Source: Candidatus Methylomirabilota bacterium (GTDB taxonomy: Bacteria > Methylomirabilota > Methylomirabilia > Rokubacteriales > CSP1-6). Taken from it: DNA of 52,989 nucleotides. The notes under the pieces are model-generated. The model had not been told where the DNA came from and searched no databases. It worked only from the letters and a program-made list of their open reading frames with translations. Both the position numbers and the translations under genes were made by a program. Position 1 is the stretch's first letter. The number at the start of each line of letters is the position of its first letter. The stretch covers positions 1-52,989 of the forward strand of contig JBKPAK010000051.1 of NCBI GenBank assembly GCA_046726415.1, in the 5' to 3' direction. Shown piece after piece: positions 9,499 through 52,989 of the stretch.

Positions 9499-10493
9499 TC
9501 GTGCGCCTGCCCAATTGGCTGGGGGACACCGTGATGGCCGTGCCAGCCGTCCGCGCGCTGCGGGGGCATTGGAGCGAGGCCCGGCTCGTGCTGGCTGGGC
9601 CTTGGGCTGCACTGCTGGCCGGACAGGGCCTCGGCGATGTCCTTGTCGACTATCCGCGGGATTGGATGGGGCGGTTGCGCACGGCGGACAGCGTGCGCGC
9701 CCTCGGGGGTGACGTCGCCGTCCTGCTGCCGAACTCAGTGGAGGCCACGTTGGCGGCGCGGTACTGGGGGGCGCGCCGCATCGTGGGCTTCGCCACGGGC
9801 GGACGGGCATGGTTCCTCACCGATGCCCTCCCGTTGCCGAGCCCGCGCGGTCATCAAATCGACGAGTATCTCTGTCTCGTCGAGCACCTCGGCGCGGCGA
9901 ACGGCGAGCGTGAGCCGCGTCTGATGGCGCCGAATGCCGACGGCCACGCGCGTCGCGAGGTGCGCGCGTTGCTCGACGAGGCGGCCGGACCGGCCGCCAT
10001 CGCCGGTCGGAGGCGCGTGGGTGTTCACGTCGGCGCTGCCTACGGCGCCGCCAAAGTGTGGCCCGTTGAACGCGTGATCGATTTCTGTCGGCTCCTCGCG
10101 GATACCGACCTCGTGGCCGTGCTCCTGGGGGCACCGGGCGATGCCGCCATCGCCGAGGAAGTCTTGCGGGCGGCGCCCGCGGCAAATCTGGTCGGTCGCG
10201 ATCGCCCCGACCGCCTCACTGCCGTTCTCGCCGAGATGGATGCCCTCGTGTGTGGCGACACCGGCGTGGGCCACTTGGCGGCGGCGATGGGAACGCCCGT
10301 GGTCGCGGTCTTCGGACCTACCGATCCCTGGCGGAGCGCCCCGCGTGGGCCCGCCGTGGTCATGCGGAATCCGCTCCCCTGCGCCCCCTGCTTTTACCGC
10401 GTCTGCCCCATCGACCACCCCTGCCTGCGAGGAATCGAAGCCACGGCCGTGACCGAGCGCGTTCGTCTCGCACTGGCGGCGAGTGCGGGGTGA
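9483..10493 (+). CDS. waaF: LPS heptosyltransferase II
   Basis: RLPNWLGDTVMA, GAAYGAAKVWP, DTGVGHLAAA, CAPC..R.CP..HPC (GT9). Confidence 0.9.
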   Translation: MPETVIVRLPNWLGDTVMAVPAVRALRGHWSEARLVLAGPWAALLAGQGLGDVLVDYPRDWMGRLRTADSVRALGGDVAVLLPNSVEATLAARYWGARRIVGFATGGRAWFLTDALPLPSPRGHQIDEYLCLVEHLGAANGEREPRLMAPNADGHARREVRALLDEAAGPAAIAGRRRVGVHVGAAYGAAKVWPVERVIDFCRLLADTDLVAVLLGAPGDAAIAEEVLRAAPAANLVGRDRPDRLTAVLAEMDALVCGDTGVGHLAAAMGTPVVAVFGPTDPWRSAPRGPAVVMRNPLPCAPCFYRVCPIDHPCLRGIEATAVTERVRLALAASAG

Positions 10494-42250: not shown

Positions 42251-43021
42251 ATGCCAGTGCTCCTGGTTACGAACGATGACGGCATTCACGCCGACGGCCT
42301 CGCCGCGCTGGCCCGGGCGGTGGAGGGGCTCGGCGCTGTGTACGTGCTCGCCCCCGAGCGGGAGCAGAGCGCCTGCGGTCATGCGCTCACCTTGCACCGC
42401 CCGCTTCGCGTGGACCAGGTCGCCGAGCGCCGCTTCGCCGTGAACGGTACTCCGTCGGACTGCGTGAATCTCGCCGTGCTGGGCTTTCTTCCTGAGCGCC
42501 CGGTGCTCATTCTGTCGGGGATCAACCATGGCTCCAACCTCGGCGACGATGTGACCTACTCGGGCACCGTCTCGGCGGCCATGGAGGGAACACTGCTCGG
42601 TGTGCCCTCCATCGCCGTGTCCCTCGCCACCGGCGGCGATTTCGAGGAGGCCGGCCGCATCGCGCGCCTGGTGGCCATGCGCGCACTCGCGAGTGGCTTG
42701 CCCGACAAGACCCTTCTCAACGTGAACGTGCCGTCCGGGGCGCCGCGGGGCTTCCGGGTGGCGCGTCTGGGCCATCGCATCTACGGCGGAAAGATCCTGC
42801 AGCAGGCGGATCCCCGCGGTCGGCCCCACTACTGGATCGGCGCGGGGCCTCCGGAGTGGGGCCTGCTCGAAGGCACCGACATGGGTGCGGTGCACGACGG
42901 TTTCGTGGCGCTGACGCCGCTGCATCTCGATCTCACCCACCACCGGGCCCTTGCCGAGATGCGAGACTGGCCCACGTGGCTGACCGCGCAGCGTCGCCAA
43001 GCACCCCCCGCGCCCCCGTGA
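42251..43021 (+). CDS. surE: 5'/3'-nucleotidase SurE
   Basis: LVTNDDG, GTPSDCV, SGINHG.NLG.DV.YSGTV.AA.EG. Confidence 0.96.
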   Translation: MPVLLVTNDDGIHADGLAALARAVEGLGAVYVLAPEREQSACGHALTLHRPLRVDQVAERRFAVNGTPSDCVNLAVLGFLPERPVLILSGINHGSNLGDDVTYSGTVSAAMEGTLLGVPSIAVSLATGGDFEEAGRIARLVAMRALASGLPDKTLLNVNVPSGAPRGFRVARLGHRIYGGKILQQADPRGRPHYWIGAGPPEWGLLEGTDMGAVHDGFVALTPLHLDLTHHRALAEMRDWPTWLTAQRRQAPPAPP

Positions 43022-43671
43022 ACGGAGCCGACCTCTTCGAGCGGGAACGCGGTCGCATGGTGGAGGATCAACTCGTCCGTCGCGGGATCAGCGACGGACG
43101 CGTGCTCGCTGCCATGCGTCGCGTCCAGCGCCACCGATTCGTGGAGGAGGCCTTTCGGGAGCGCGCCTACGGTGATCATCCACTCCCCATCGGTCAAGAG
43201 CAGACCATTTCGCAGCCCTACATCGTAGCGCTCATGACCTCGCTGCTCGCGCTCACCGGTCGCGAGAAGGTCCTCGAGGTCGGTACGGGCTCCGGATACC
43301 AGACGGCCGTGCTCGCCGAGCTGGCCCGACGCGTCTGCTCGATCGAGCGCATTCCGGCCCTGGCGGCGCGGGCGCGCGGCGCTCTCGAGGCACTGGGCTA
43401 TGCCAACGTATGGGTGCGGGTGGGCAACGGTACTCTCGGCTGGCCGGACGAGGCTCCGTTCGACTGCATCCTGGTGGCGGCGGGAGGCCCCACCGTACCC
43501 CCGCCGCTGTTCGAGCAACTTGTCGATGGTGGCCGCATGGTGCTCCCCCTCGGAGACCAGACGGGCCAGACGCTCACCCTCGTGCAGAGCGTGGGTGGGC
43601 ACATGCGGACGCGCCCGTGCGGCGATTGCCACTTCGTGCCTCTGCTCGGCAAGTACGCCTGGAGCCTGTGA
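43018..43671 (+). CDS. pcm: Protein-L-isoaspartate O-methyltransferase
   Basis: QTISQPYIVA, VLEVGTGSGYQ.A, GWP.EAPFD, FVPL. Confidence 0.96.
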   Translation: MNGADLFERERGRMVEDQLVRRGISDGRVLAAMRRVQRHRFVEEAFRERAYGDHPLPIGQEQTISQPYIVALMTSLLALTGREKVLEVGTGSGYQTAVLAELARRVCSIERIPALAARARGALEALGYANVWVRVGNGTLGWPDEAPFDCILVAAGGPTVPPPLFEQLVDGGRMVLPLGDQTGQTLTLVQSVGGHMRTRPCGDCHFVPLLGKYAWSL

Positions 43672-43696
43672 AGCCTGTATAATCGAGCGATCACTC

Positions 43697-43773
<77 letters not shown>

Positions 43774-43834
43774 TCACCGTGTCGCCGCCGATCGGTCGTG
43801 CCGGTCGGCGGTCGACTGAGTCTCAACGAACGGT

Positions 43835-44137
43835 TTGGACGCAACAGCACGGGAGGCGGCGGAGATCACCATCGAGGGCCGCGTGCAAGGAGTCGGGTTC
43901 CGCGACTTCACCCGACGTCACGCTCGCGACCTGGCCCTGGTTGGGTACGTGATGAACCTTGCTGACGGCCGGGTGCGCGTGTGGGCGGAAGGGCCCCACG
44001 AGGCCATCCAGAGCCTGGCCGATCGGCTCGAGCAAGGGCCTCGTCTGGCTCGAGTGGATCGCATCGCGGTGACCTGGGCCGCATCGACCGGGCGTTGGCC
44101 GACATTCGCGGTTCGTACCGAGAGCGCTGACCGGTGA
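43835..44137 (+). CDS. acyP: Acylphosphatase
   Basis: [15 protein letters not shown]...AEG. Confidence 0.92.
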
Positions 44138-44958
44138 TCGCCGGCCGTCGAGCGCGACGGATCGGCACCGTCGCCATGCTGGCGATCACGACGGCCAGCG
44201 TTCCCGCGCGCGCGATCGCCGCCGGCCCCGGGGGGATGTCGCACGAGGTGAGGCGCAGCGACACGCTCAGCGGCATCGCGCGGCGGTATGGCGTCAGCAT
44301 CCGCGAGATCGTGGCGGCCAACCGCCTTCCGGGACCGCGCGCCCGCCTTCCCGTGGGACGCCGTCTGACCATCCCCGACCAGACCATTGGCGAAGGCGCG
44401 AAGTCGACCTGGCGCGCCATCGCGCGGCCCGGGCCGCGGACCACGCGAGCGGCCCTTCGAGCCACGGCGCGTGAATCCGTGTCGGATCCTCCGGCCAATC
44501 TTCTTTTGGCGGTCCCTGAGTTCAGCGTCCCAGTCCCCCCCTTTGCCTGGCCGGTGGACGGCGTCGTCAGCTCCAACTTCGGACGGCGCGGCCGGGGTTG
44601 GCACCGCGGGGTGGACATCGCGGCCCCGGCCGGCGCGCCCATTTCTGCGGCCGCGGGAGGTCTCGTCATCGCGAGCGGGATCGAGGAGCGGTACGGGCGC
44701 GTCGTGAAGATCGAGCACGATGCGGGCTTCGTGACCGTCTATGCGCACAATCTGTCGAACAGCGTGGACGTCGGAGACCGCATAGCCACTGGTCAGGAGA
44801 TCGGGCACGTGGGACGGACTGGCCATGCCACCAGCTCGCATCTGCATTTCGAGATCCGCCATGAGGGGCGCGTCGTCAATCCACTCTATCTCCTTCCGCT
44901 TCCGCCTCGGGTGACCGCGGAGGAGTTTGCCGTCGCGCCCGAGGACGACGATGAGTGA
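44134..44958 (+). CDS. LysM + M23 peptidase (NlpD-like)
   Basis: Lys[15 protein letters not shown]23 HRGVDI, YAH, TG......HLHFEIR. Confidence 0.9.
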
Positions 44959-45871
44959 GGAGGTCGACGAGGCGGTCATTCCCGATGAGCCCCTCGGCTC
45001 GCTGATGGACGTCGCTGACCACGAGGTCCGCCAGGAGACCCGGGACACGAGCCGGGCCAACCTGGGCTTGTACCTCTCGGAAATCTCGCGCATCCCTCTG
45101 CTGAGCCGGCAGAAAGAAGGGGCGCTGGCGCGACGCGCGAGAGCTGGCGACGAGGCGGCCAAAGCGCGCCTGACCGAGGCCAATCTGCGGCTGGTCGTCC
45201 AGGTCGCGCGACGGTACCTCAACCGCGGGCTTCCGCTGCCCGACCTGATCGAAGAGGGCAATCTCGGACTCATGCGCGCGGTTGAGAAATTCGAGCCCGA
45301 GCGTGGGACTCGGTTCTCGACGTATGCGACGTGGTGGATCCGCCACGCCGTCGTGCGCGCTTTGGCCAACCAGGCCCGCATGATCCGCTTGCCCGTCCAC
45401 GTAGAGGCTCTCTTGGGGCGCTATGCCAAGGAGCACGCTCGACTCACGCAGGAGCTGGGGCGTGCGCCGACGGCGGACGAAATCGCCTCGGCCCTTCAGA
45501 CCACGGTAGAGCAAGTGCGCGAGCTCGAGGAGATCCGTCAACCGCCGGTGTCGCTGGATGTCCCCGTTCGCGACGACGCCACCCTGCGGGACCTGGTGGC
45601 CGATCCGGCCCCGGAGCCGGGCGCGGCCATCGGCAACCTTCTTCGGTCGCGCTCCGATCTGCTCACGGTTCTGGACGACCTGCCCGCCAACGAGCGCACC
45701 GTGCTCCGGCGCCGCTTCGGACTCGAGGGCGATTCTCCCGAGACGCTGGAGGCCATCGGACGCCGCCTGTCGATCAGCCGTGAACGCGTCCGCCAGATCG
45801 AAGCCAACGCGCTTCGGAAGTTGCGCGGTCTCCTCGCCGCGCGCGGCATCGACGCCGCTGATATCGACTGA
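44951..45871 (+). CDS. Group 2 sigma-70 factor, RpoS-like
   Basis: [56 protein letters not shown]; lacks region 1.1; downstream of surE-pcm-nlpD-like. Confidence 0.88.
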
Positions 45872-46225: not shown

Positions 46226-49200
46226 TTACGCTCCGATCTCCGCTGCTGCCCGTTCACGCCAGAACTGCATATCCATCTCGTGGTACATCGTCGTCGCGGT
46301 GCTGAGGTGCTCCTGCGCCTCTTGCCGCTTTCCGATGCACCGATAGAGCTTGCCGAGGCCGAGGTGGCAGTGGGCGATGAGGGGACGCATTCCCCGCTGC
46401 TCGGCCAGCGCCAGCGCTTGGCGGTACTGATCCTCGCCGCGCTCGGAATCGAACCGATCGGGATGCGTCGCGATGTCGCCGAGCAGGTGTAGCGCATGGG
46501 CCGCGAACCCGGGGTGCTGCGGAGATGTTTCGACCACGCGATCGCCGAGGTCTCGCGCCTCGTCGAACCGGCCGAGCAGCAGACCGGCGCGACCCAGTGC
46601 GTGGTGGACCCAGCCGCGATAGCCGACGATCCCCGCCGCCTGCTGACGCTCGAGAAGCTGCTCGCCTTCACGGAGCCGGGGCAGCGCCTCACTCGTCTCG
46701 CCGAGTTGCGCCAGCACCCAGGCGGAGCAGGCAACCGCGTGGGGGAGCAAGAGGACGATGTTCGCCGTTCGAAGCACCCCGATCTCACGCTCGAGCAGAG
46801 CGCGTGCCTTCACCCAGTTGCCTTTCACGAGGTGAAGCCAGCCGGCGGCGCGGAGGGCAACACCGAGGGTATACGGATGATGTGTCGACTCAGCCAGCCG
46901 AATCGCCTCGACTTCGTACTCGGCCGCCTCGGCGAATCTGCCGAGTTCGGCCATGCTCATGGCGAGCCAGCCGCGATCAGCGACTGATGGCAGCGCGATG
47001 TTTCCGAAATACTCGTAGACCCGCTCGGTAGGCAATGCTGCGAGGTTGTCGGTGGCCAGCCGAACCACTCGCTCGAATTCGCCTCGGCGGTAATGACCCT
47101 GCTCGAGGAGGGTCGTGGTGAGGATGCGAAGCTCGAAGTCCCCTCGCATCCAGGCAATCTCCAGCGCGCGGGTTCCATATGTGTGAGCCTCATCCAGCCG
47201 GCCGAGATGCATGTAAATGGCCGCCGTGTCCGCCCACACATACCCGCGCCTGCGGTCGTCGTTCAACCGCTCGGCAAGCATCTCTCGCTCGCGCAGCCAT
47301 TCGAGCAGGGGACCGACTTCGCCGAGCTGGACGAACGCGGTGTGCAGGTCGCAGCGGATCTCGAAACCGTGCTCCAGGGTGGACTGGTTGTCCGGGAGAT
47401 GGGCCAGCGCGTCGAGCGCGCGCTCGAAGGACGCCACCGCCTCCCCGTTGGCGGAGCGTTCGAGGGCTCTCGCCCCAGCCCGGCGGAGATGGACGACGGC
47501 CTTGTCCCAGACCTCGCCCTTGGCGTAGTGAAGACCGAGCGCGAGGTGGTGCGACTCCAGCCTCCCTTCGTGGAGGGCCGCGAGCGCCTCCGCTACACGG
47601 CGGTGAAGTACCTTATGGCGGGGAACGAGGATGCGGCTATACGCTACCTCGCGCACCCGATCGTGAGTGAAGTCCAGACGCTCGCCCACGCTGTGCAGCA
47701 CGCGCCGGCGGATCAGCTCCTCCACTCGCCGCGCCGCCTCCTCCTCGCCAAGCCCGGAGACGTGCTGGAGCAGAGCGAACTCGAACTCGCACCCGACGAC
47801 GGAGGCTTGCGCCACCAGCTCACGGCTCCGCTCGTCGAGACGATCGAGCTGGCGGCTGATGATGTCACGGACACGTTCCGGCAGTGGCAGCCCCTCCAGC
47901 CCGGGGGGGAGCACCTCGTGAGCGGCCGCCCGCATCGCCTCGATCACCACGAAGGGATTCCCGCCGCTGGTGCGCCACATGTCCTCCCCCAGGCGCGCCG
48001 TCTCCACGTCGTCCGTTCCCGGACGCGTGAGAGCCTCGACGAGGTCGAGCGTGTCGCTCCGGGACAATGGTCCGAGCGCCACCCGGGTCACGTGGGGCTC
48101 GCGCTCCAGCTCGCCGAGCGTCCGCTGCAGCATCGGCGCATCGACCAGCTCCTCCTCGCGTGCCGTCACCAGCAGCAGGAGCCGCCACGCCCGGAGGCGG
48201 CGGGTGATGAACGCCAGCAGCCTGACGCTCATCTCGTCCGCCCAGTGGAGGTCTTCGAGGATCAAGACTGTCGGCTGCCGGTCGGCCACGTGGCCGAGGA
48301 GCAAGCTCACACCCTCGAAGAGCCGCAGGTAGTCGGGAGGGGCCGCCCACTCGGCATCTCCGAACCCCAGTTCGGGAAGCAGACGTCCCAGCTCGCGGCG
48401 GATCGCCAGCGGCAGGGTGTCGAACCATTCCCGGTCTTCCCCCACGTGCCCTGTGCGCAAGGCCTCCACCCAGGGGCCGAACGGCAAGATCTGCTCGCTT
48501 TCGTGGCAGCGTCCGATCAGCACGCGGGTAGTGTCCACGGGAACCTCTGCTGCCAGTTCCGCGACGAGTCGTGTCTTGCCGACGCCGGCTTCGCCAATGA
48601 AGGCCACCACCCGCCCCTGCCCGCTGACGGTCTCCGCGAGGGCCGCTCGCAACCGGGCCATCTCTTGGTCGCGCCCGATGAGGGGCGTGTCCCTGGTCAA
48701 GACTAGGGACGGGCGCCGGATGCTCGCGAAGGGTTCCGACCCTTCTGAACCTGCTGGCTCGGAGGTCGTCGTGAGGAGCGGTCGCCGGCGGAGGATCTCC
48801 TGGTAGAGACGTTTCGTCTCCTCCTCCGGCTCCACCCCCAGCTCGCGCTGGAGGACACCCACGCAGAGCTGGTACTGGTGGAGGGCAGAGCCCCGTCGCC
48901 CGAGCTGGGCGTAGAGACGCATGAGCGTGCGGTGCACTGGCTCCTGGAGCGGGTCGAGCGCGCTCAGTCGCAGCCCGGTCTGCAGGGCGGTCTCCACGGC
49001 CCCGGCGGCACGCTGCGCGGCGAGCAATGCGGCGTGCGCCTCAATCGCTAGCTCGCGCAACCGCTCCCGCTCCGCCATCAGCCACTCCTCGAACGGGGGC
49101 TCTTGCAGGGTCAGCCCGTCGAGCAGGTCGCCCCCATAGAGTTGGACCGCCTGCCCAAGCGCCTCGGGCGTGCGCGCGCGCACCAGCCGCTCGAAGGTCG

Positions 49201-49510
49201 CCGCATCGACGTCGACGGCGTGCGGGTTCAGGGCGATACTCGCGCCCTCGATGTCTAGACAGCCGGGGCGGGCGGGCTCCACGGCCGGCCGGAGCGAAAA
49301 CAGGGCCTGCCGAAAGCTTTTCCGGGCGTGTCCCCGCGAGAGGTCCCCCCAGAGCAAGGCGGCTAGTTTGTCGCGTGAGTGCCTTCGGCCAAGGGGGAGA
49401 GCGAGATAGGCGAGAAGTGCCTGGAGCTTCTTGGTGGGCAGCGGCAGGGGCGGGCCGGCACCGAGCCGAGCCTGAAAGCCGCCCAAGAGCGTGAGGGTGA
49501 GCCGCGCCAT
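46226..49510 (-). CDS. SARP-type (wHTH+BTAD) regulator fused to STAND AAA ATPase and TPR repeats, 1094 aa
   Basis: LLGGF..., ALLAYLAL, SR.KLA.LLW (wHTH); LY.GDLL, F.EW...ERE.L, DPL.E..HR.LM..Y (BTAD); Walker A GEAGVGKT, Walker B LEDLHWAD; helical repeats; RBS GAGGAGG before ATG 49510. Confidence 0.92.
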   Translation of the reverse strand: MARLTLTLLGGFQARLGAGPPLPLPTKKLQALLAYLALPLGRRHSRDKLAALLWGDLSRGHARKSFRQALFSLRPAVEPARPGCLDIEGASIALNPHAVDVDAATFERLVRARTPEALGQAVQLYGGDLLDGLTLQEPPFEEWLMAERERLRELAIEAHAALLAAQRAAGAVETALQTGLRLSALDPLQEPVHRTLMRLYAQLGRRGSALHQYQLCVGVLQRELGVEPEEETKRLYQEILRRRPLLTTTSEPAGSEGSEPFASIRRPSLVLTRDTPLIGRDQEMARLRAALAETVSGQGRVVAFIGEAGVGKTRLVAELAAEVPVDTTRVLIGRCHESEQILPFGPWVEALRTGHVGEDREWFDTLPLAIRRELGRLLPELGFGDAEWAAPPDYLRLFEGVSLLLGHVADRQPTVLILEDLHWADEMSVRLLAFITRRLRAWRLLLLVTAREEELVDAPMLQRTLGELEREPHVTRVALGPLSRSDTLDLVEALTRPGTDDVETARLGEDMWRTSGGNPFVVIEAMRAAAHEVLPPGLEGLPLPERVRDIISRQLDRLDERSRELVAQASVVGCEFEFALLQHVSGLGEEEAARRVEELIRRRVLHSVGERLDFTHDRVREVAYSRILVPRHKVLHRRVAEALAALHEGRLESHHLALGLHYAKGEVWDKAVVHLRRAGARALERSANGEAVASFERALDALAHLPDNQSTLEHGFEIRCDLHTAFVQLGEVGPLLEWLREREMLAERLNDDRRRGYVWADTAAIYMHLGRLDEAHTYGTRALEIAWMRGDFELRILTTTLLEQGHYRRGEFERVVRLATDNLAALPTERVYEYFGNIALPSVADRGWLAMSMAELGRFAEAAEYEVEAIRLAESTHHPYTLGVALRAAGWLHLVKGNWVKARALLEREIGVLRTANIVLLLPHAVACSAWVLAQLGETSEALPRLREGEQLLERQQAAGIVGYRGWVHHALGRAGLLLGRFDEARDLGDRVVETSPQHPGFAAHALHLLGDIATHPDRFDSERGEDQYRQALALAEQRGMRPLIAHCHLGLGKLYRCIGKRQEAQEHLSTATTMYHEMDMQFWRERAAAEIGA

Positions 49511-49573
49511 AAGGCCCTCCTCGCCTACGGGGCTCCAACCTAGCACCGCCTCCGTTTGGTACCCAAGGGTTCC

Positions 49574-49613
49574 TTGACGTCCTTTTGACGTCACATCGAC
49601 GGATTGATGACGC
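49574..49613 (+). promoter_or_regulatory. Four heptamer direct repeats at 11-bp period (putative SARP/wHTH binding array)
   Basis: TTGACGT 49574, TTGACGT 49585, TCGACGG 49596, ATGACGC 49607. Confidence 0.7.
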
Positions 49614-49672
49614 GCCGCCGTCCACGCTCGCCCACGCCGTGACATCGAGTGGCGGGAGTGGCCGGCAAGCGC

Positions 49673-49834
49673 ATGACGTTCATCGTCCGGATCTTCGTTG
49701 ACGAGGGAGGTGCGATCAGCGGCGTGGTGGAGCAAGTCACGAGCGGCAGGAAGGAGTCCGTCCACGCCATCGCGGACGTCAGCCGCGTCATCGCCGTGAT
49801 GGTCACGGGCGAGAAGGCGACCGGCCGCATGTGA
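49673..49834 (+). CDS. Conserved microprotein, copy 1 (53 aa; alternative GTG 49649)
   Basis: MTFIVRIFVDEGGAISGVVEQVTSGRKESVHAIADVSRVIAVMVTGEKATGRM; ungapped paralog at 50923. Confidence 0.75.
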   Translation: MTFIVRIFVDEGGAISGVVEQVTSGRKESVHAIADVSRVIAVMVTGEKATGRM

Positions 49835-49978
49835 GGCGAGTCTTACAGGATGAGGTTGAGGAGGTGAGAACGGTTCCGGTACTTGATGATGAGGCAAGGC
49901 TGATGCGGGTGTGCCTGGCATACTCAGCCCTTCAGCCGCCCACACGACGACCTCATGGCATTGCCGAAGGAGAAAAGT

Positions 49979-50714
49979 ATGATTTCAACGCTCAGAGCAG
50001 TCGGACGTGCTGCCCTCGTCACAATTCTGGCAGCCTTGATGCCGATGGGCCTTTCGGGCGGTAAACGCACAGGGCTCGAGCTGGGGCTCCAATCGGCTGT
50101 CGCGGCATCGAAGGCACTCGCAGCTTCGCGGGGTGGGCCCCTGATTCTGAGCCTCAGCGACAATCCCGGACCTGGCGAGAGTCCGGGGCCACCCGTGTAT
50201 GCGGGCATCGCGTTGTTCTTCATGAATACCGACGGCGAGTGGGTGGCCATCGAGTTCGTTCGTCAACCAACGTGTATTCCCCAGTACTTCAACTTGCTTG
50301 AGTTCTTCGATCTCCCCGGCGCGTTCGCGTGTCCGCTCACTTTCGCGGGAGAGGAGTGGTGGCACGCCGAGGATCTGATCGGGCTGGATCCCTGGGAGAC
50401 GCTACCTCCGTTTCCGTTTCAGGCACACTACGTAGGGGGCTGGCGCCATTCCGATCTACTTCGTCAAGCTGGCCGAGTTGACAGCAGCCATGGCAGACGG
50501 CGTCCTGACCATCGGCGAGCTTGATGCGCTGCCTTCGTTGCTGGTCGGCCGCACGAGCAAATACCAGATGATCCAGCTCAACCCGGAACAAGGCCACCGA
50601 CCCGGCCATTCGACCACGGTAGCCCACGGTGCGCTGCAGGACGGGCGCTCATTCCAGTACCACAAGGTCGATCGGAACAACGAGACGATCAGCATCGAGA
50701 TCAGCTTCGATTGA
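49979..50714 (+). pseudogene. Putative secreted protein of unknown function, split by one frameshift at G run 50435-50439
   Basis: RBS AAGGAG; hydrophobic N-terminus; ...PFQAHYVG continues in another frame as AGAIPIYFVKLAELTAAMADGVLTIGELDALPSLLVG to stop 50714. Confidence 0.65.
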
Positions 50715-50922
50715 ATCGAGCTGGCTGGGCCTACCGGCTCCAGCATGACTCCACCTTGCGGACGATCTGCTCGTGTCTGTGCGGGGCGGGCGCCACAACT
50801 ACGCCGGAAAATCGATCTGCGACGGCGGGCTGATGATCGGCCTGTCGCGATGAAGGGGATCCACGTGGACCCCGGGCGGCGGACAGCCCCGCCCAGGTGT
50901 AACGGAAGTCACAGGCGAGTTG

Positions 50923-51084
50923 ATGACGTTCATGGTCCGAATCTTCGTTGACGAGGGAGGTGATATCCGCGGCGTCGTGGAACAGGTGAGGACCGGCAGG
51001 AAGGAACCGATCCACGCAGTCGCTGACGTCAGCCGCGTGATCGCGGTGATGGTGGCGGCCGAGCGGCCGGATGGGCGAATGTGA
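50923..51084 (+). CDS. Conserved microprotein, copy 2 (53 aa; not in ORF track)
   Basis: MTFMVRIFVDEGGDIRGVVEQVRTGRKEPIHAVADVSRVIAVMVAAERPDGRM; 40/53 identical to copy 1 by hand alignment. Confidence 0.75.
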   Translation: MTFMVRIFVDEGGDIRGVVEQVRTGRKEPIHAVADVSRVIAVMVAAERPDGRM

Positions 51085-51110
51085 AACGACGGCTCTTCGC
51101 GGAGGAAATG

Positions 51111-51962
51111 ATGGAAGCTCTCTTGCCGCACAAACACAGGATGATCCGGCTCCATGGTCTGCCACAATGCCGCCGCCTCGGGTTCTCCCTCGGAGCCGGC
51201 GTTCTGGTGACGCTGGCCCTTCTCGGGCCGGCCTCCTCCCTGGCGCTCGCGGCGGGCGTGCGGGCCCGCTTCGATCTCGATGATCGCCGGGGCAGTCCGT
51301 TTCCGAGCGATCGCTTCACCGTGGCCGATACAACGCAGAACACCGGGCTGCGCGTCAATGTCCCCAAGCCCGACTGCACGACGCGCCGAACGACTGCCAG
51401 AATCTCGGCGTCATCAACACGCTCGACGGCTTCAACGTGCAGCCACGTCTCTCCATCCCGTTCGACGGAACGATCGATGTGACGAGCGTCAGCAGCCAGA
51501 CCATCTTCCTGGTGAGCCTCGGGAGCACGCTGTCGGGCGGCGACGGCGGTGGCCAAGTGATCGGCATCAATCAGTGATATGGGATGTGGCGACGACCACT
51601 CTCCACGCAGAGTCCGACAGTATGCTGGATCAGCACACACGCTACGCACTCATCGTGACCCGTGGTGTCTTGGACGCCGCCGGAGATCCGTCGAGGCCGA
51701 CGACGCCATCCGGCGATTCCGCCACGACCTGAACTTCGGACAGACGGGGCACGATCCGGTCCTCAAGCGCTACCGGAAGGATCTCCTCGACGCGTTGGCC
51801 GCCGCGGGGGTGGCCGAGCAGGACGTGGCGGTGGCGAGCGTCTTCACGACCCAGAGCGTCACCGCGATGCTGGAAGCGGTCCGCGATCAGATCCCGCTGG
51901 GGACACCTTCCGCGGCCGACTTTGTGAGGATAAGAATTCCAAAGCCCGTTCGTTGCCGCTAA
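51111..51962 (+). pseudogene. Secreted Ig-like (Big_5-type) domain protein, three frameshifts and C-terminal truncation
   Basis: Signal peptide, PFPSDRFTV, RVN.P.PDC, INTLDGFN.QPRLSIPFDG.ID..SV, IGINQ/VIWD, LDQHTRYALIVT, ASVFTTQS; frame breaks near 51386, 51574, 51690. Confidence 0.7.
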
Positions 51963-52774
51963 CCTTTCCCCCTTACCCCCTGCCGCAGGCCACGATCGCG
52001 CTCCCGGAGGGAGCGTAAGTCAAGCGGCCGGGAAGGGTGATGCCCTTCGGCGGTGCTCAGAAGGGCGGCGATCCGTCGAGGGACCGTGCCCTCGTAGAGA
52101 AGAAGACGGGAGCGGCCAGAGCCAGAACGAAGACGGGAGGCAGACGACGGGTTGCCGACCCCTGCTCGGTTAGCCATCGTGCGCAGTCGCGGGGGCCAGT
52201 TCACAGAGAAATCGGGGTGGATCTCGCCGGGCGTGACAGGGAGGCAGCTGAGGTCGGCGAGATGGGCCCGAAGTGAGGATCCGTGGCGGCCAGCCTGGAG
52301 AAGATGAAGTCCGTGCTCGGGTCTTCGCGCCAATTGGCGGCGCCGTGCACATCGTCAGCGCGAGGGGACCTGACTCCGCACGCTCACACTATAAGGCTCG
52401 AGACGACCGATCGCTCGTTCTCCCTTGTCACGAACGACAGAGCATTTTATGGTCAAACCGACCTTCCCCTTGTCCATCCTTGCTACCAAATCAGCGTGGG
52501 GAGCAGCTCGACCTACTCACCCGGCGCGTGGTCGGTCGACGGATGGAGCACGGGCCGACACCGGAGACGGACTGAGGCGCTGGACAAGCTGATGGTGCTC
52601 CGAGCCTGGACGGCGCGGCGCTTGGTGAACTGAACGTGGGAGGCGAAGGCCCGACGGTCGGGATAACTACGTAGCCTTCCGATGACCCGGCCACGTGATA
52701 CCCAGAGGCATTCTCTTCCAACGCGCCGCTGACAGGAGAATGTCCGCATGACCGGACTGAGGAGGCACCTGAAA

Positions 52775-52989
52775 ATGGGTCTGGACTCGAGCGCGCGGCG
52801 GCGGCTCATCGATGACTTCAATCGGCTGTACTACGACGGACCGGAGGGTCGTCATCTCTACGAGACGACAAAGTGGCTGGGCGTCCCCGTCCAAAAGTGT
52901 CCGCTCGACCTTTGGATGTATCAGGAAATCCTCTACGAGACCAGGCCGGACGTGGTGATTGAAAGCGGAGTCTACTGCGGCGGCAGCAC
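52775..52989 (+). CDS. CmcI-family (cephalosporin hydroxylase-like) methyltransferase, 3' partial
   Basis: RBS GAGGAGG; MGLDSSARRRLIDDFNRLYY...WLGVPVQKCPLDLWMYQEILYETRPDVVIESGVYCGGS; absent from ORF track because no stop is in the window. Confidence 0.85.
   Translation, partial: MGLDSSARRRLIDDFNRLYYDGPEGRHLYETTKWLGVPVQKCPLDLWMYQEILYETRPDVVIESGVYCGGS

Follow-up and report, generated by a model that had tools for sequence, protein, structure and literature searches.

The window analysed here, a stretch of 52,989 nucleotides from a Candidatus Methylomirabilota (Rokubacteria) bacterium, is the entire contig C51 (JBKPAK010000051.1) of a 7.6-Mb genome with 67.5% GC. It carries a large SARP-type regulator gene on the minus strand and, across a divergent spacer of 162 bp, a plus-strand series made up of a microprotein gene (m1), gene A, a second microprotein gene (m2) and gene B. 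Comparison with other genomes shows that the regulator, the repeats in the spacer and the microprotein belong to a real and widespread regulatory module, and that the window's copy of it is partly decayed; the literature searched has no description of it.

Regulator, spacer and microproteins

The regulator gene (46226..49510, minus strand) encodes 1094 aa, for which the original prediction had proposed a winged helix-BTAD-ATPase-TPR architecture. Size and strand are confirmed, and the Pfam scan confirms three of the four parts, with BTAD at residues 112-240 (E 9e-27), AAA_16 at residues 276-445 (E 2e-24) and TPR_12 in the C-terminal repeats (E 1e-12), while Trans_reg_C did not score in residues 1-110. 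The N-terminal winged helix is read from homologues, since these residues align full-length with proteins annotated as BTAD regulators, and it should be regarded as probable. The STAND ATPase has its F-T-H-D motif at 614-617 in the alignment and belongs with AAA_16, not with the NB-ARC clade (E only 0.025), which is a difference from AfsR.

In the spacer the predicted 11-bp-periodic array is present as four direct repeats with core GACG (49574..49613, plus strand; starts at 49574, 49585, 49596 and 49607), which are the predicted binding sites of the regulator. A phased array of four such sites was reached in 0 of 5000 dinucleotide shuffles, and this one is the sole example in the genome. Over 49 such spacers the ACG-ACG distances peak at 11 (55 pairs), 12 (40), 23 (37) and 24 (29), as against shuffle means of about 5 pairs at these distances. 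An extended -10 element (TGnTAnnnT; 49537..49545, minus strand) is the predicted promoter of the regulator gene, and such an element faces the regulator in 35 of the 49 spacers (shuffle mean 0.9, maximum 5). In the other direction a weak -10-like hexamer (49623..49628, plus strand) lies 10 nt past the last repeat and may serve m1; a similar hexamer stands 6-12 nt past a repeat pair in 23 of the 49 spacers, a figure without shuffle control. According to the accessible text of PMC10936776, the repeats of SARP promoters are spaced by 11 or 22 bp, and 8 bp separate their end from the -10 element. The window and its relatives fit this layout, with the qualifications that 12-bp spacings are also common and that the window's -10 is weak.

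The microproteins m1 (49673..49834) and m2 (50923..51084), both on the plus strand, are paralogues of 53 aa, as had been predicted; they share 75% identity and lie within a 187-nt direct repeat. Over 42 codons the proportion of synonymous differences (pS) is 0.41 and that of nonsynonymous differences (pN) 0.09, and pN is below pS in 52 of 54 pairs of microprotein genes with at least 72% DNA identity. The microprotein is thus conserved as a protein and represents a real coding family. A 17-row profile collected 653 clusters at 50% identity, and homologues of the window's microprotein are labelled Rokuibacteriota/Methylomirabilota. No Pfam or NCBIfam family was found at the curated cut-off (116 + 25 members against Pfam, 54 against NCBIfam); stray matches were single, none being common to two members.

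AlphaFold2 predicts three strands and a helix for the Rokubacteria type, m1 included (predicted local distance difference test score, pLDDT, 91), and the same fold for the Chloroflexota type (pLDDT 91). The two profiles align in hhalign with a probability of 95% (E 3e-8), and Arg6 is near-invariant across the subfamilies. Foldseek gave no match to the model at E<=0.001, and other structure matches are at background level (Z 3.4-5.5), with no row standing out. The best is MmoD, likewise three antiparallel strands and a helix (Z 5.5, root-mean-square deviation 1.7, 48 aligned), followed by the HicB N-terminal domain with the same strand and helix arrangement (Z 4.2-5.1) and by COMMD chains, including a bacterial COMMD-like protein (Z 3.6-4.4). 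However, for HicB, MmoD, COMM and dsRBD domains the Z-scores are below the level of kinship and there is no sequence match; a HicA-like neighbour was not noticed among the loci inspected. In the ESM Atlas three clusters from Deinococcota and Actinomycetota scored 0.87-0.89, which is a lead only.

Neighbourhood of the microprotein family

The original prediction had expected homologues of the microprotein to be enriched beside BTAD-STAND genes, and with regard to BTAD genes this is strongly borne out. A profile search found a match in 56 of 251 genomes of the phylum, and the 57 loci with E < 1e-8 outside the window's genome gave 62 hits (the 17 weakest rows, E > 1e-8, were left out). Of these copies 45 stand head-to-head with a winged helix-BTAD gene at a distance of at most 350 bp, one of the loci (L135) being a weak match; nine more have a BTAD gene within 7 kb, three lie beside a truncated STAND-TPR gene and one is at a contig edge. 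Since BTAD genes are few per genome (0-14 matches, 15 candidates scored in each), adjacency by chance is estimated at about 0.07%.

Chloroflexota gave matches in 54 of 201 genomes, with up to 18 copies. Among the 29 best hits, taken from genomes outside profile building and counted by hand, 18 have an adjacent BTAD gene: six are divergent from it, four stand behind a full SARP-STAND-TPR gene, six behind a small SARP and two before one. A further six have a BTAD gene 0.9-5 kb away, and two lie beside a cut-off STAND-TPR gene.

The family as a whole spans six phyla, namely Rokubacteria, Chloroflexota, Actinomycetota, Acidobacteriota, Pseudomonadota and Deinococcus, the phylum names being taken from record titles. 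In Actinomycetota (9 of 251 genomes) five of nine copies are beside a BTAD gene, the SARP part being C-terminal in the three scanned; in Acidobacteriota (5 of 151 genomes) all five are beside such a regulator; and of the four Pseudomonadota matches (in 201 genomes) two are beside one, another is noise and the fourth lacks a regulator within 1.5 kb. Two Deinococcus plasmids carry a BTAD gene divergent from the small gene, which in Deinococcus sp. KNUC1210, where the pair is MF271_RS21200/RS21195, is followed by a delta-60 repeat protein, and in a third case the small gene lies behind an AAA gene. The Rokubacteria and Deinococcus profiles match each other weakly when compared directly (probability 3.8%, E 0.011), and the link runs via Chloroflexota, members of which were found with the Deinococcus profile. 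A pattern scan of metagenomes gave only two loci of the Deinococcus type.

A third subfamily, from Acidobacteriota, was recovered at E 2e-9 to 5e-5 by a mixed profile not containing it. In six of eight loci it stands head-to-head with Trans_reg_C + AAA_16 proteins that lack BTAD, and the loci have repeats of their own, recognised by eye. The tie to the STAND regulator class in the original prediction is therefore too narrow, because copies are also found with small SARPs that lack an ATPase and with winged-helix ATPases that lack BTAD. Retention beside the former indicates that the STAND part is dispensable; what STAND-SARPs, small SARPs and BTAD-less winged-helix ATPases have in common, and what is thus constant, is the OmpR-type winged helix together with the repeats.

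Several candidates were set aside in the course of these searches. On plasmids of Skermanella and Sinorhizobium, the small genes that diverge from BTAD genes had no profile match, matches in Nonomuraea and Microbacterium were noise, and 'Binatia' was dropped as a further phylum since its search gave the same contigs as that for Methylomirabilota.

The window's genome contains additional copies. One, on contig C260 (6569-6706), is cut after residue 38 and has behind it a 934-aa gene that by eye is cyclase-like/ATPase/TPR; the same short sequence ends another open reading frame (ORF) near 10238. Two distant third-subfamily copies are found on contig C250 at 3627, facing a winged helix-ATPase gene without BTAD that is seemingly in pieces, and on contig C32 at 9257, preceding a gene that by eye is arylsulfatase-like.

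Downstream genes and decay of the window's copy

The genes behind the microprotein are exchangeable, varied and often cytoplasmic, so that of the interchangeable exported outputs originally proposed the interchangeability holds, whereas export is not universal. By a crude rule, 20 of the 44 next genes that could be scored have a signal-like stretch, compared with 268 of 1518 in the control; for four of the 62 copies the next gene was unscorable. In 14 of the 62 phylum copies (L087, L109, L111-L114, L116, L118-L120, L122, L123, L126 and L127) the microprotein runs in-frame into an SDR-like enzyme; in L080, L081 and L084 this enzyme has an overlapping gene of its own. Other cargo we take, by eye, to resemble SDR, AraC, DsrE, peroxiredoxin and tail-sheath genes. 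In 27 of 67 hits there is a 4-nt overlap between the stop of the microprotein and the start of the next gene.

Pairs of a small SARP and a microprotein stand directly before genes that by eye resemble contractile injection genes (tail sheath, ATPase) in L330, L323, L332 and L337, and such settings were seen in Chloroflexota, Acidobacteriota and Pseudomonadota. This recalls the BTAD genes listed beside extracellular contractile injection operons in PMC8213781; a difference is that the accessible text of that paper mentions no small partner.

In the window the two tandem units of microprotein and signal-peptide-bearing gene that had been predicted are found only in part. The microprotein is repeated, but both output genes are broken and the window scan found no phased array in front of m2. 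Gene A (about 49979..50714, plus strand) has a signal-like N-terminus and is frameshifted near 50435. The frameshift is also present in run X1, while X2 and X3 have one base fewer there, which would join both parts in-frame. No family or homologue of gene A was found, and the query used gave no match in 150 other genomes of the order.

Gene B (51081..51923, plus strand), the start of which is overlapped by the m2 stop, is a relic of the 5' third of a gene for a secreted protein, likely an alpha/beta-hydrolase, with three frameshifts and a truncation. It matches residues 1-281 only of an intact 754-aa paralogue, in four pieces of 54-71% identity, and that paralogue stands behind a microprotein on contig C314. 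Since zero-difference contigs from other runs share the frameshifts of gene B, these are not assembly errors. The locus is decaying, with both downstream genes broken. Where gene B ends there is a dispersed repeat of about 225 bp (51926..52150), recognised from a depth jump and from eight other genomic matches at 81-93% identity, of which five span nearly the whole repeat. Its depth in soil runs is very high, and it is possibly a small non-autonomous mobile element. On contig C203 a microprotein fragment (1999-2055) lies directly 3' of the end of another gene B copy.

Farther out, the window carries at 42251-45871, upstream, an ordinary set of housekeeping genes that by eye are surE-like, protein-isoaspartate methyltransferase-like, acylphosphatase-like, LysM/M23 peptidase and sigma-factor genes, and at 52748-52987 the first part of a gene for an RMNT_CmcI methyltransferase (Pfam E 9e-13), which runs off the contig.

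A proposed cofactor of winged-helix regulators and rival explanations

The closest known parallel is AfsR-AfsS, a large SARP (winged helix, BTAD, nucleotide-binding domain, TPR) beside a small gene with 11-bp promoter repeats just before the -10 element, as given in the accessible parts of PMC10936776 and PMC11301090. AfsR activates afsS, and AfsS binds AfsR and raises its affinity for the promoter (PMC10832544, accessible text). The window resembles this arrangement in having a large SARP beside a small gene with 11-bp direct repeats. The defining trait of AfsS, however, is its internal sequence repeats, and its gene is placed downstream of afsR (10.64898/2026.09.02.748808, in its accessible part). 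The microprotein, by contrast, is predicted to form a single domain with three strands and a helix; its gene is as a rule divergent from that of the regulator and stands first in operons whose cargo varies, and it is found with regulators lacking ATPase or BTAD as well. Because it lacks internal repeats and has a different predicted structure, the microprotein is not AfsS.

MalT offers a second parallel, as a STAND transcription activator that is controlled by protein inhibitors. The proteins that control MalT are large ones of metabolism or transport and act on its ATPase/sensor part, unlike the family described here, which co-occurs with the winged helix.

The original prediction saw in the microprotein a dedicated partner of the regulator, and the neighbourhood data (45 of 62 and 18 of 29) make this the best reading once the limitation to the STAND class is removed. 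By analogy with AfsS, we consider it an evenly balanced proposition that the microprotein is a feedback cofactor which binds the DNA-binding part of the winged-helix regulator. A sensed signal would switch on the STAND/TPR part, and the regulator would bind the repeats across the -35 region and recruit RNA polymerase. The microprotein, made first from the regulator's own target promoter, would then tune the regulator-DNA complex, with the winged helix as predicted contact; after the model of AfsS it would stabilise the complex, the sign of the effect being possible either way. The genes behind it would be exchangeable cargo, which in the window has decayed, with m2 as a spare copy.

A number of observations weigh against such a partnership. 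No such regulator is present in the fetched DNA around four of the 62 Rokubacteria copies and three of the 29 Chloroflexota hits, one copy stands behind a LuxR-type response regulator, and the phylum tallies, the 45 of 62 among them, include kin, so that related genomes are no independent counts. Seen from the regulator, the microprotein is an optional partner: only four of the six N-terminal SARP genes of the window's genome carry it, and of 80 BTAD loci from many phyla 12 have a detectable copy, four of which built the profiles. A SARP-STAND gene on contig C297 has phased repeats and a divergent signal-peptide gene upstream of 6177, and no microprotein. No fusion of microprotein and regulator genes was seen among the loci, and for a free cofactor the in-frame fusion to an SDR-like enzyme in 14 of 62 copies is unusual. 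Lastly, near-identical contigs from the other runs X1, X2 and X3 have m1 frameshifted by the loss of one base at 49758, and a truncated m1 of 41 aa is on record. Intact m1 is present on five contigs, and the source sample may be among the runs concerned; no RNA holder is listed for the sequence. In contrast to m1, m2 is intact in the listed well-covered near-identical contigs and lacks a base at 50980 in one contig of depth 2. The C297 locus constitutes a natural control without the partner.

Among the alternatives, the microprotein might itself bind RNA polymerase or nucleic acid and so act at the same promoter or transcript, with no contact to the regulator. The near-invariant Arg6, a basic strand-2/strand-3 face in the Rokubacteria type and weak fold matches to dsRBD and MBD (Z 3.4-4.8) point in this direction. 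Yet all Z-scores are below 6 for a common arrangement, the basic residues besides Arg6 are not kept across subfamilies, and the three subfamilies track differing regulator types and repeat cores, so that we regard this explanation as unlikely. It appears rather improbable that the microprotein is a translated leader acting in cis, which would supply the first cargo gene with ribosomes or a folding tag. It does usually head its unit, with the 4-nt overlaps and SDR-like fusions described above, and the second copy heads the window's second cargo; but a folded domain is kept over six phyla, many copies lie 40-300 nt from the next gene, and a leader would have no need to track winged-helix regulators.

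That most neighbours are STAND-TPR proteins and that signal-like cargo is enriched would suit a role as adaptor or inhibitor acting on the STAND/TPR sensor, or as chaperone for exported cargo. The sensor variant conflicts with retention by ATPase-less small SARPs, which stand upstream in 6 of the 18 adjacent Chloroflexota cases and downstream in two more, and the chaperone variant with retention before cytoplasmic cargo, which leaves this pair of roles distinctly improbable. The microprotein could also be a passenger, copied along with the promoter cassette and having an unrelated or minor role, given that regulator, spacer and microprotein duplicate en bloc (79% DNA identity between the C51 and C314 copies) and that loss and frameshift occur. 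The link nevertheless outlasts four gene orders and three regulator architectures across phyla under purifying selection, and we find a mere passenger very improbable.

The feedback-cofactor reading can be widened, somewhat more tentatively, to a widespread class of cofactors of about 50 residues that may dock on the OmpR-type winged helices of one-component activators (SARP, STAND-SARP and CadC-like ATPases) and make self-reinforcing or self-limiting switches. Such a class would be an independently evolved equivalent of AfsS controlling secreted-protein and contractile-injection operons in at least six phyla.

No description of the microprotein family was found in the literature searched, which held few subscription journals and left supplements, whose neighbourhood tables could list the family, outside the search; the sole small SARP cofactor found described there is AfsS. 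SARP-type activators are widely used for waking silent gene clusters. If the cofactor reading is true, AfsS would be joined by another family, unrelated to it and much more widespread, and small feedback partners would prove to be a general feature of winged-helix one-component switches. Hundreds of unannotated genes would thereby be named, and a regulated promoter would be marked in uncultured Rokubacteria and Chloroflexota. As culturable Deinococcus carries the family, the proposal would be directly testable there.

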